DNA of 64,000 nt. Origin: a virus. The stretch lies in IMG/VR virus record IMGVR_UViG_3300033049_000041, positions 1 through 64,000 of that record, one strand, 5' to 3'. The notes below the pieces were generated by a model. It had not been told where the DNA came from and searched no databases. It saw only the letters and a list, made by a program, of their open reading frames with translations. Positions 25,126 through 25,541 of this stretch are shown here, one piece after another (position 1 is the stretch's first letter; the number at the start of each line of letters is the position of its first letter). The position numbers and the translations under genes were made by a program.

Positions 25126-25541
25126 ATCAACCTGGTGTGTTGTTACACCAAAAGCTCTAAGGGACGTTCATATAGCATCAGGGACTATTAAGATAATACT
25201 AACATGTCGTTATCCCTTTGATTCCCTATTCCGTTGTGTACTACGGAAACTTACTATATTTTCTCAGACCGTCATTAGACCACAATACATCTGCTAAGTT
25301 TGGAATGACTTAATATTTCAATTAAGCCAATAATTCTAGCTGGATAATACCATCTTCTTCAAAATCTTTTCCCTAAGTTTCGAGACACCCTATCAGCATT
25401 ATCTCCTTTAACATGCCGCCTACTTCTCTACTCATATCTAAAATAGATATTCTGTGGTGATACGCAAGTTGCAACTTACTCCCACAAACTTTCGCTACTC
25501 TTTAAATGATGACTACTTCCAAGCCTACATCCCTGATTGAT
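25126..25541 (-). ncRNA. Large structured RNA containing a 23S rRNA H42-H44 (L11-binding GTPase centre) mimic
   Basis: 5' ATCAATCAGGGATGTAGGCTTGGAAGTAGTCATCATTTAAAGAGT ... 3' GGTGTAACAACACACCAGGTTGAT; ends pair; no listed ORF; many internal helices. Confidence 0.8.

Follow-up and report, generated by a model that had tools for sequence, protein, structure and literature searches.

A family of phage RNAs built around a copy of the ribosomal GTPase-associated centre: a possible off-ribosome imitation of the factor-docking site

Introduction

A non-coding RNA of 416 nucleotides (nt) is predicted on the minus strand of the viral record IMGVR_UViG_3300033049_000041, at positions 25126-25541 of a 64,000-nt stretch (positions 1 to 64,000 of the record) that we call the window and that was analysed as a whole. 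This RNA is predicted to rebuild helices H43 and H44 and the tip of H42 of 23S ribosomal RNA (rRNA), that is, the GTPase-associated centre (GAC), and sequence comparison places it in a large and widespread family of phage RNAs, which is apparently undescribed. Covariation among the relatives, including that of a base triple whose partners lie on opposite sides of an insert, indicates that the GAC fold is under selection. Long members of the family carry, in addition, a hairpin of the sarcin-ricin type, a second element of the ribosomal factor site. Our overall reading, to which we give about an even chance, is that these structured phage RNAs would be off-ribosome, protein-binding imitations of the factor-docking site.

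The GAC and the sarcin-ricin loop dock and activate every translational GTPase and count among biology's most conserved sequences; to our knowledge, they are known only inside ribosomes. The record that carries the RNA comes from IMG/VR, where it is 85,231 base pairs (bp) long and classed as a virus with a CheckV completeness of 41%, and the carrier is a phage. The window is AT-rich (32% G+C), and its minus strand carries all of its large open reading frames (ORFs) as well as every one of its 25 transfer RNA (tRNA) genes and its one transfer-messenger RNA (tmRNA) gene. In a search of sequencing runs, the DNA of 24500-26500 was matched in a single seawater metagenome run only, a DNA run that may itself be the source.

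Correspondence with 23S rRNA

With E. coli rrlH (stored locus L034) as the rRNA reference, blastn aligned the window RNA with 23S positions 1055-1096 (E = 8e-07). The initial annotation of this DNA had claimed a match to positions 1054-1090 and 1091-1105, and the two segments are indeed identical at 30 of 37 and 10 of 15 positions; the sequence strings that it quoted were all found on the minus strand of 25126-25541. Its further claim, that the substitutions preserve structure, is borne out by seven of the 12 differences from E. coli, which fall in three compensated pairs and the triple partner 1072. The 1054/1105 pair changes from A-U to G-C, 1090/1101 from A-U to U-A, and 1092/1099 from C-G to U-A together with C to U at 1072, giving a 1072/1092/1099 triple of U/U-A. 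The change of C to U at 1075 gives a G1063.U1075 pair, and the other four differences (1061, 1067, 1089 and 1097) lie at unpaired or variable positions. All H43 pairs are present (1057-1059/1079-1081 and 1062-1065/1073-1076), one of them as G.U.

Covariation of the base triple 1072.(1092-1099) in rRNA was reportedly described by Conn, Gutell and Draper in 1998. The underlying contacts, a tertiary pair between C1072 and C1092 and a hydrogen bond between C1072 and G1099, are documented for rRNA in the available part of PMC2952862. The initial annotation had also called the change U1061A stabilising. Position 1061 is variable in rRNA, and according to the excerpt of PMC6239185 at hand A1061 is indeed more stable with Mg2+, but less stable in monovalent salt. 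The same excerpt describes A1070 and A1095 as invariant in rRNA and as making no tertiary contact, with A1095 touching cofactors (PMC6239185).

The match to 23S rRNA is more than chance, because the relatives show covariation (see below). Nor is the window RNA an rRNA gene, since no large-subunit rRNA match was found in the window with Rfam 15 and the flanks are phage ORFs devoid of rRNA similarity. Compared with the 23S GAC (E. coli 1051-1108, the 58-mer that binds uL11 and thiostrepton), the phage RNA has identical helices, the 1082-1086 pair and the 1072.(1092-1099) triple. In contrast to its ribosomal counterpart, however, it stands free in phage DNA with no further rRNA around it, it has a short variable stem in place of H42, and members of the family carry an insert of 0-400 nt between 1090 and 1091.

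The predicted RNA lies in a gap that contains no ORF of at least 40 amino acids on either strand, between flanking ORFs that end at 25084 and start at 25550. Nine of the ten pairs of its closing stem form, with one A.A mismatch; a terminator-like site was called at 25152-25131 plus tail, and a U run lies 3′ of the closing stem. The GAC halves are 348 nt apart. A pattern of the 5′ core matched the window once at 0 mismatches, and three times at up to two mismatches against 0.52 expected by chance; a pattern scan of the whole 85-kilobase (kb) record found this one occurrence and no second GAC core.

Covariation and conservation of the core

Pairwise counts over 60 rows reveal extensive compensatory change in the GAC helices. 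The 1058-1080 pair is U-A in 31 rows, G-C in 16, A-U in nine and C-G in two (other in two); 1082-1086 is U-A in 39, A-U in 12, C-G in eight and U.U in one; 1064-1074 is C-G in 56 and G-C in four; and 1054-1105 is G-C in 32 and A-U in 25 (other in three). The H44 pairs that span the insert (1087-1102, 1090-1101, 1091-1100 and 1092-1099) are kept in 60/60 rows, where positions 1100-1102 were fixed by the search pattern. In a 5′-anchored sample, whose filter fixed C1100 and C1102 and left 1101 free, the 1090-1101 pair is U-A in 49/52 and position 1087 is a G, pairing with C1102, in 50/52.

The strongest constraint concerns the base triple. The search patterns left position 1072 free throughout, and positions 1092 and 1099 free as pyrimidine (Y) and purine (R), respectively. 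After pooling of the 3′- and 5′-anchored samples, 102 modules lacked insertions or deletions in H43, 91 of them distinct, and among these 91 the combination 1072/1092/1099 is C/C-G in 59, U/U-A in 25 and U/U.G in seven, with none of the five other allowed combinations seen. The partners lie 76 to 358 nt apart in the 3′-anchored set. Five pairs of modules (from loci L263/L272, L118/L009, L126/L071, L134/L003 and L231/L245) differ at none or one of the other positions and yet at all three positions of the triple; the switch has therefore occurred repeatedly.

Several further positions are fixed: U1060, U1066, G1071, A1088 and G1089 are invariant in 91/91 modules. The H44 loop follows G-U-A-R-N-A (N, any base); among the 47 modules whose loop the search left free, it is most commonly GUAAUA, as in rRNA. 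RNAalifold preferred a plain hairpin at the 3′ end, in which 1092 pairs with the invariant A1101. This candidate was rejected, as 29/60 rows break it (C.A) and none of the 60 breaks the GAC pairing.

The structure as a whole was assessed in an alignment of 18 long members, covering the GAC pairs, the junction at the base of the insert and five further helices. Pairing was found in 94.0% of cells against 82.0% in shuffles, and 37/59 pairs were changed on both sides against 17.6 +/- 2.6; neither value was reached in any of 500 shuffles, and controls with slid partners gave 10-17 pairs changed on both sides. As 13 of the 18 sequences are close relatives, there are fewer independent events than these cell counts suggest. 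The closing stem (helix 1) has changes on both sides at six of seven pairs, and H43 (helix 2) is 99.2% paired. Covariation of partners across the insert, in the 91 modules and in this alignment alike, thus upholds the proposal of the initial annotation that the fold is selected and is not a passive rRNA scar.

A widespread phage RNA family

Counts from the pattern scans rest on the matches listed, and family totals are lower bounds. A homologue search, which the initial annotation had proposed, yielded more than 100 distinct, covarying relatives in phage and metagenome contigs, in which the GAC core is constant. A 26-nt pattern of the common 3′ end matched 29 IMG/VR stretches, and a looser form of it 57 metagenome stretches. 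A 16-nt pattern of one H44 half matched at least 120 IMG/VR stretches, where an estimated 90 or so chance matches are expected at that length; requiring the 5′ core within 460 nt left 56 unique RNAs among the matches listed. A pattern of the 5′ core alone also matched at least 120 IMG/VR stretches and gave, among the matches listed, 97 new loci, of which 54 have an H44-like 3′ half and a closing stem; four loci lack an insert.

The family extends to cultured phages. In a blastn search of 50,697 phage records, Cronobacter phage GAP32, Ralstonia phage RSP15 and Acinetobacter phage ME3 turned out to carry relatives in intergenic gaps that bear no annotation; the search also matched the 23S stretch of Paenibacillus phage Pd_22F described below. 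A second blastn search brought the number of cultured large phages to about 20, nearly all with no annotation under the match: Aeromonas phage 4_4572, Xanthomonas phages XacN1 and XbC2, Vibrio phage 2.275.O, Pectobacterium phage CBB and Serratia phage BF, GAP32, RSP15 and ME3 again, Pseudomonas phages Milchi, Astolliot, pf16 and UNO-G1W1, and six Erwinia pEa_SNUABM phages and Kaldavass. Their hosts thus span Cronobacter, Pectobacterium, Erwinia, Serratia, Pseudomonas, Acinetobacter, Ralstonia, Xanthomonas, Aeromonas and Vibrio.

The smallest members seen, at loci L223 (1021-1087, plus strand) and L234, come from two IMG/VR phage contigs. They are related to each other, have a C at 1067, and consist of a stand-alone GAC of about 60 nt.

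Genuine 23S rRNA occurs in phage records as well. The list from the second blastn search also includes small records with real 23S sequence, annotated as such, and in Paenibacillus phage Pd_22F (L002, MZ092003.1 82477-85512) an unannotated 1.7-kb gap is continuous, genuine 23S. The latter is host DNA or an assembly artefact and is not a member of the family.

A sarcin-ricin-type hairpin in the long members

In long members, a hairpin in the second domain of the insert reads AGUACGAGAGGA, identical to E. coli 23S 2654-2665, and the blastn match spans TAGTACGAGAGGA, 23S 2653-2665. The strict AGUACGAGAGGA-type motif is present in 41/47 unique RNAs of at least 354 nt and in 0/59 of those of up to 350 nt; the 47 include two false members, L090 and L136, which lie in coding sequence. 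A looser search found the hairpin in 44/50 RNAs of at least 340 nt, the exceptions being L150, L170, L187, L167 (through a deletion) and, again, L090 and L136. The sarcin-ricin-type pairing is preserved by ten or more distinct stem sequences, and the corresponding helix 12 is 100% paired, with four of six pairs compensated. The likeness to the ribosomal sarcin-ricin loop (H95) is thus letter for letter in relatives, but the phage hairpin is joined physically to a GAC copy, as it never is in rRNA.

The equivalent hairpin of the window RNA retains, at the level of sequence, the stem UUUCC/GGGAA, the AGUA...GA motif of the bulged-G type and the closing C-G pair. We judge the window RNA to be a full copy of the GAC and a partial copy only of the second centre. 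An intact sarcin-ricin motif was not found elsewhere in the window, in which five matches at up to two mismatches compare with 4.5 expected; the best of these further matches (52783-52794) is the start of an ORF. A sarcin-ricin-like AGUACGA in GAP32 was considered and rejected, as it is not common to that phage's relative L007. One RNA, L077 (861-1259, minus strand), has two sarcin-ricin-type motifs, AAUACGAGAGGA and GGUACGAGAGGA.

Architecture of the insert

In all members with an insert, its position is between U1090 and G1091, and a helix of its own closes it. Its length is 0 in L223 and L234 and otherwise ranges from 27 to about 400 nt. Table 1 lists the features of the window RNA.

Table 1. 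Predicted features of the 416-nt RNA, in window coordinates.
Feature	Position	Strand	Basis
Entire non-coding RNA, 416 nt, bounded by the closing stem (ends predicted)	25126..25541	-	ORF-free gap; fold z-score -2.36
Closing stem, 5′ strand AUCAAUCAGG, stands for the H42 tip	25532..25541	-	pairs with 25126-25135
Closing stem, 3′ strand CCAGGUUGAU, followed by a short U run	25126..25135	-	pairs with 25532-25541
GAC 5′ half GGGAUGUAGGCUUGGAAGUAGUCAUCAUUUAAAGAGU = 23S 1054-1090 (H43 and H44 5′ strand)	25497..25533	-	30/37 identical to E. coli; H43 pairs kept
GAC 3′ half GUGUAACAACACACC = 23S 1091-1105 (H44 loop and 3′ strand)	25134..25148	-	10/15 identical to E. coli; differences compensated
Junction, 5′ strand: 3-bp stem AGC, then GA	25492..25496	-	AGC pairs with GCU 25153-25155
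Junction, 3′ strand: UUA bulge, GA, then GCU (CCC-UUA-GA-GCU)	25153..25160	-	GAG invariant in the alignment
UUUG linker 5′ of G1091	25149..25152	-	YUUUG precedes G1091 in most relatives
Insert domain B, closed by AAGUUUG (25485-25491) with CGAAACUU (25375-25382)	25375..25491	-	equivalent helix covaries (helices 6-7)
Insert domain C, closed by GGG (25371-25373) with CCC (25161-25163)	25161..25373	-	equivalent helix 88% paired in relatives, with compensatory changes (helix 10)
Sarcin-ricin-type hairpin: UUUCC-G-UAGUA-C-ACAAC-G-GAAU-A-GGGAA	25222..25249	-	aligned with the AGUACGAGAGGA hairpins of relatives

In the subclass to which the window RNA belongs, the junction has NNN-GA as its 5′ strand and CCC-UUA-GA-NNN as its 3′ strand. 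Its NNN stem covaries, from AGC/GCU in the window to UGC/GCA, GUC/GAC, UCC/GGA and GCC/GGC elsewhere (helix 5, 100% paired). The CCC strand has its partner in a distant GGG, a pairing that likewise covaries (UCC/GGA, CCG/CGG and UCAG/CUGA). A separate helix continues from the first G-A strand, and the GAG of the bulged strand and the A of the opposite strand are invariant in 18/18 sequences. The kink-turn consensus consists of a three-nucleotide bulge followed by tandem G.A/A.G pairs between a regular and a non-canonical stem. By its sequence the junction fits a kink-turn embedded in a three-way arrangement, and we therefore call it kink-turn-like. The inner part of domain B has no detectable relative, and for domains B and C of the window the signs of selection are confined to the common helices.

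Inserts have been exchanged between close relatives, as syntenic gut phages show: L118 has a 158-nt insert, no sarcin-ricin hairpin and a C/C-G triple, whereas L005, L006 and L009 have inserts of about 356 nt, the hairpin and a U/U.G triple. A hairpin loop UGGUAAYAG recurs in the otherwise unrelated short inserts of L038, L055, L068 and L140, and may be a docking loop.

A further likeness to 23S rRNA was noted at 25423-25457 (minus strand; RNA positions 85-119), with 78% identity over 37 nt to E. coli 23S 1930-1965. With E = 0.016 in a 4.5-kb database, as one of ten queries, and common to no relative, this echo is probably due to chance. Compared by blastn with 23S, 16S and 5S rRNA, the other parts of the long-class RNAs gave no convincing match.

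Genomic context

The RNAs are closely associated with tRNA genes. A tRNA gene lies within 2 kb in 38/60 family loci, and all 147 of these tRNAs (147/147) are on the strand of the RNA; at many loci a tRNA abuts the closing stem, 1-14 nt away or overlapping its rough start. This suggests that the RNA is co-transcribed with the tRNAs and released by tRNA-processing enzymes. In the window, the nearest tRNA gene (Gln, 26006-26079) lies 465 nt upstream, with a DUF3307 membrane-protein gene in between, and the neighbouring ORFs encode, according to Pfam and PHROGs, this protein, a DNA ligase and unknowns.

No protein was found to be common to the neighbourhoods of 60 loci beyond one group of syntenic gut phages of about 180 kb. 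Across 222 loci from 154 lineages, there was no conserved neighbour protein; only two clusters recur, in 8-9 lineages, and by their Cys/His motifs these resemble HNH homing endonucleases.

Other RNA genes of the window deserve mention. A tRNA with anticodon UUA, which reads UAA, was called by ARAGORN at 26121-26192 (minus strand), about 580 nt upstream of the RNA; the Rfam match covers model positions 5-66 only, and the acceptor stem may be incomplete. The tRNA matches at 33102-33247 and 31836-31932 (minus strand; 146 and 97 nt) are genes with large internal insertions. A phage tmRNA gene in the tRNA-array region (51857-52241, minus strand) scores 71.5 bits with Rfam and has the tag peptide GAYAPVRMAA according to ARAGORN.

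Relation to known RNA classes

The initial annotation had not recognised a named family, and this holds. At gathering threshold, Rfam 15 (which includes models for LSU rRNA, GOLLD, ROOL, the ribosomal-protein leaders and group I/II introns) returned tRNAs and the tmRNA only for the whole window and tRNAs only for the loci of 12 relatives; at 24900-25800, with E up to 10, there were two chance-level snoRNA rows and no intron model match. A literature search found no prior description of a phage RNA family that copies the GAC. The available part of PMC10690425 reports 10,006 unnamed candidate viral RNAs and states that no rRNA prediction overlaps them; the family may sit unnamed in the supplementary tables of that study.

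Some known RNAs offer partial parallels. The large, ornate RNAs GOLLD and ROOL often occur in phages, close to tRNA genes; like them, the GAC-copy RNA is large, structured and without an assigned function, but it matches neither model in Rfam 15, and we know of no rRNA centres in GOLLD or ROOL. The leaders of L10- and L1-type operons mimic the rRNA binding sites of ribosomal proteins, so that the L10 leader and the L1-binding leader of the L11 operon are, like the phage RNA, copies of a ribosomal-protein site off the ribosome. Unlike the phage RNA, which is a separate gene in tRNA arrays and copies a whole tertiary domain, these leaders are cis-acting parts of messenger RNAs before ribosomal-protein genes in cells. 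Among the ORFs neighbouring the window RNA there is no ribosomal-protein operon, and no L11 or L12 domain was found in the record.

Phage tRNA arrays have been described as counter-measures to tRNA-cleaving defences (PMC10264068, in the part available), and the RNAs reported here share their genomic place and possibly their logic. In contrast to tRNAs, which can take the place of damaged ones, a 416-nt piece of rRNA is no substitute for the whole 23S molecule, and such an RNA could therefore act only as a bait or an inhibitor.

Proposed function and alternative explanations

The reading of the family as an off-ribosome imitation of the factor-docking site has the following form. A stable and structured RNA, encoded in or beside phage tRNA arrays, would bind host uL11 through its GAC fold, and ribosomes would face competition from the resulting particle for some ligand of the GAC and the sarcin-ricin loop. 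The insert-less members of about 60 nt suggest that the GAC itself is the working part, and the lack of a conserved neighbour protein fits a target in the host. EF-G is said to bind isolated oligonucleotides of both centres, in work of Munishkin and Wool from 1997, and uL11 is known to affect RelA activation and release-factor use. Of three candidate targets, each of low probability, ribosome-directed toxins or defence effectors, such as ADP-ribosyltransferases of the Tre23 kind acting at H44 or nucleases of the VapC20 kind acting at the sarcin-ricin loop, have only a slight edge; uL11 itself, with effects on RelA or on release factors, and the translational GTPases come close behind, on a par with each other. 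As described in the accessible portion of PMC8661411, Tre23 ADP-ribosylates H44 within 1095-1098 and so lowers the GTPase activity of EF-G, and VapC20 and VapC26 cleave 23S rRNA, VapC20 at the sarcin-ricin loop. In a speculative but possible extension, the RNA replica of the GTPase centre would serve as bait for immune toxins that disable rRNA, as the rRNA counterpart of the tRNA arrays, and an arms race would have shaped its variable H44 and sarcin-ricin loops into pseudo-substrates. Such a race fits the location in tRNA arrays and the variability of exactly those loops that are attacked.

A number of observations weigh against an imitation of the docking site. Positions 1067, 1070 and 1095, which contact factors rather than hold the fold, are less strict in the phage RNAs than in rRNA: 1067 is A in 61, G in 29 and U in one of 91 modules, 1070 is A in 73 and G in 18 of 91, and 1095 is A in 40, U in four and G in three of the 47 modules whose H44 loop was left unfixed by the search. 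The tetraloop of the second centre is relaxed as well. When two doubtful rows of 22 are set aside, 20 distinct hairpins have GAGA in ten, GGGA in four and AAGC in two, with AAGA, GAUA, CAAC and ACAAC once each, and L156 has GGAA; the window RNA is the one with the pentaloop ACAAC in place of the GAGA tetraloop (the equivalent of G2659-A2662). This relaxation of 1067, 1095 and the tetraloop argues against a strict mimic of factor binding, and the presence of a sarcin-ricin arm speaks against binding of uL11 as a complete explanation. The insert-less L223 and L234 are the sole exceptions to the triple rule, with U1072 beside C1092-G1099, and fall outside the count of 91 modules; 43 of the 97 5′-core loci, all four insert-less ones among them, were left unresolved by the filters and outside the study. 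For the window insert, a specific 24-nt pattern matched 0 metagenome stretches, and in a blastn comparison of the window RNA with 106 collected members only the GAC halves and the junction matched. The search of sequencing runs with 24500-26500 listed no RNA run. No L11, L12, GTP_EFTU, RtcB or RNA_ligase domain was found in the 85-kb record, an absence that says little because the record is 41% complete. A decoy would also face the competition of tens of thousands of ribosomes in each cell. Finally, uL10 sits on lower H42 with its kink-turn, and without this part the uL10 stalk cannot form; binding of uL10-bL12, which the initial annotation had envisaged, is therefore unlikely, the phage RNA having only its short variable closing stem there.

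Among the other explanations, the most serious is that the GAC is a structural clamp, a compact and nuclease-resistant cap that joins the two ends of functional inserts unrelated to one another, its ribosomal likeness being without functional significance. The great diversity of the inserts (27-400 nt), which are swapped even between the syntenic phages of the L118 and L005 groups, speaks for a clamp, as does the fact that most conserved GAC nucleotides are fold builders while the factor-contacting 1067, 1070 and 1095 are relaxed. Insert-less members, however, consist of the GAC alone, and the large class has recruited the sarcin-ricin loop, a second ribosomal factor-site element. Moreover, A1095 and A1070 are kept in 85% and 80% of modules, respectively, less strictly than in ribosomes but, by our estimate, above neutral expectation, given that neither makes a tertiary contact in rRNA according to the excerpt of PMC6239185; we thus regard the clamp as rather doubtful. 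Action on the ribosome, by docking at, or standing in for, a stalk base that is damaged or absent, or by tuning how factors are used on host ribosomes, is an unlikely alternative in our view: both factor-site elements are copied closely and the RNA is co-located with tRNAs and tmRNA, that is, with the translation kit of the phage, but the closing stem varies in sequence and offers no conserved complement to rRNA, and we know of no precedent for an RNA of this kind acting there.

More improbable still is a cis element of the tRNA operon that would serve processing, termination or regulation, for instance as an autoregulatory site of a ribosomal protein similar to the L10 and L1 leaders. The RNA is always on the strand of the nearby tRNAs and often abuts them, and its end in the window is terminator-like; in 154 lineages, however, no upstream or downstream gene is conserved, ribosomal-protein genes are lacking nearby, and 416 nt with tertiary covariation far exceed the needs of a processing signal. 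The notion of passive rRNA scrap, be it a captured piece of host 23S, a contaminant of the assembly or a fragment that an intron or a mobile insert has split, draws on the real rRNA pieces that phage records do hold (Pd_22F and the small records annotated as 23S). Yet the flanks of the RNA in the window lack rRNA similarity, intron models gave no match at E up to 10, compensatory and triple covariation extends over more than 90 modules, and the insert is closed by its own helix at any length from 0 to 400 nt. This explanation is hardly credible, and it is refuted as far as sequence analysis can go.

Implications

As about 20 cultured phages carry copies, the proposal that the RNAs imitate the factor-docking site is directly testable. 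For annotation, the family accounts for a recurrent 'empty' gap in large phage genomes, and it would provide a natural minimal model of the factor-binding site. If the proposal is true, a free phage RNA with one or both centres would add a class to the known virus-host interactions at the translation apparatus, and this would hold whether the RNA is a bait for toxins, a sponge for uL11 or factors, or something not yet imagined.

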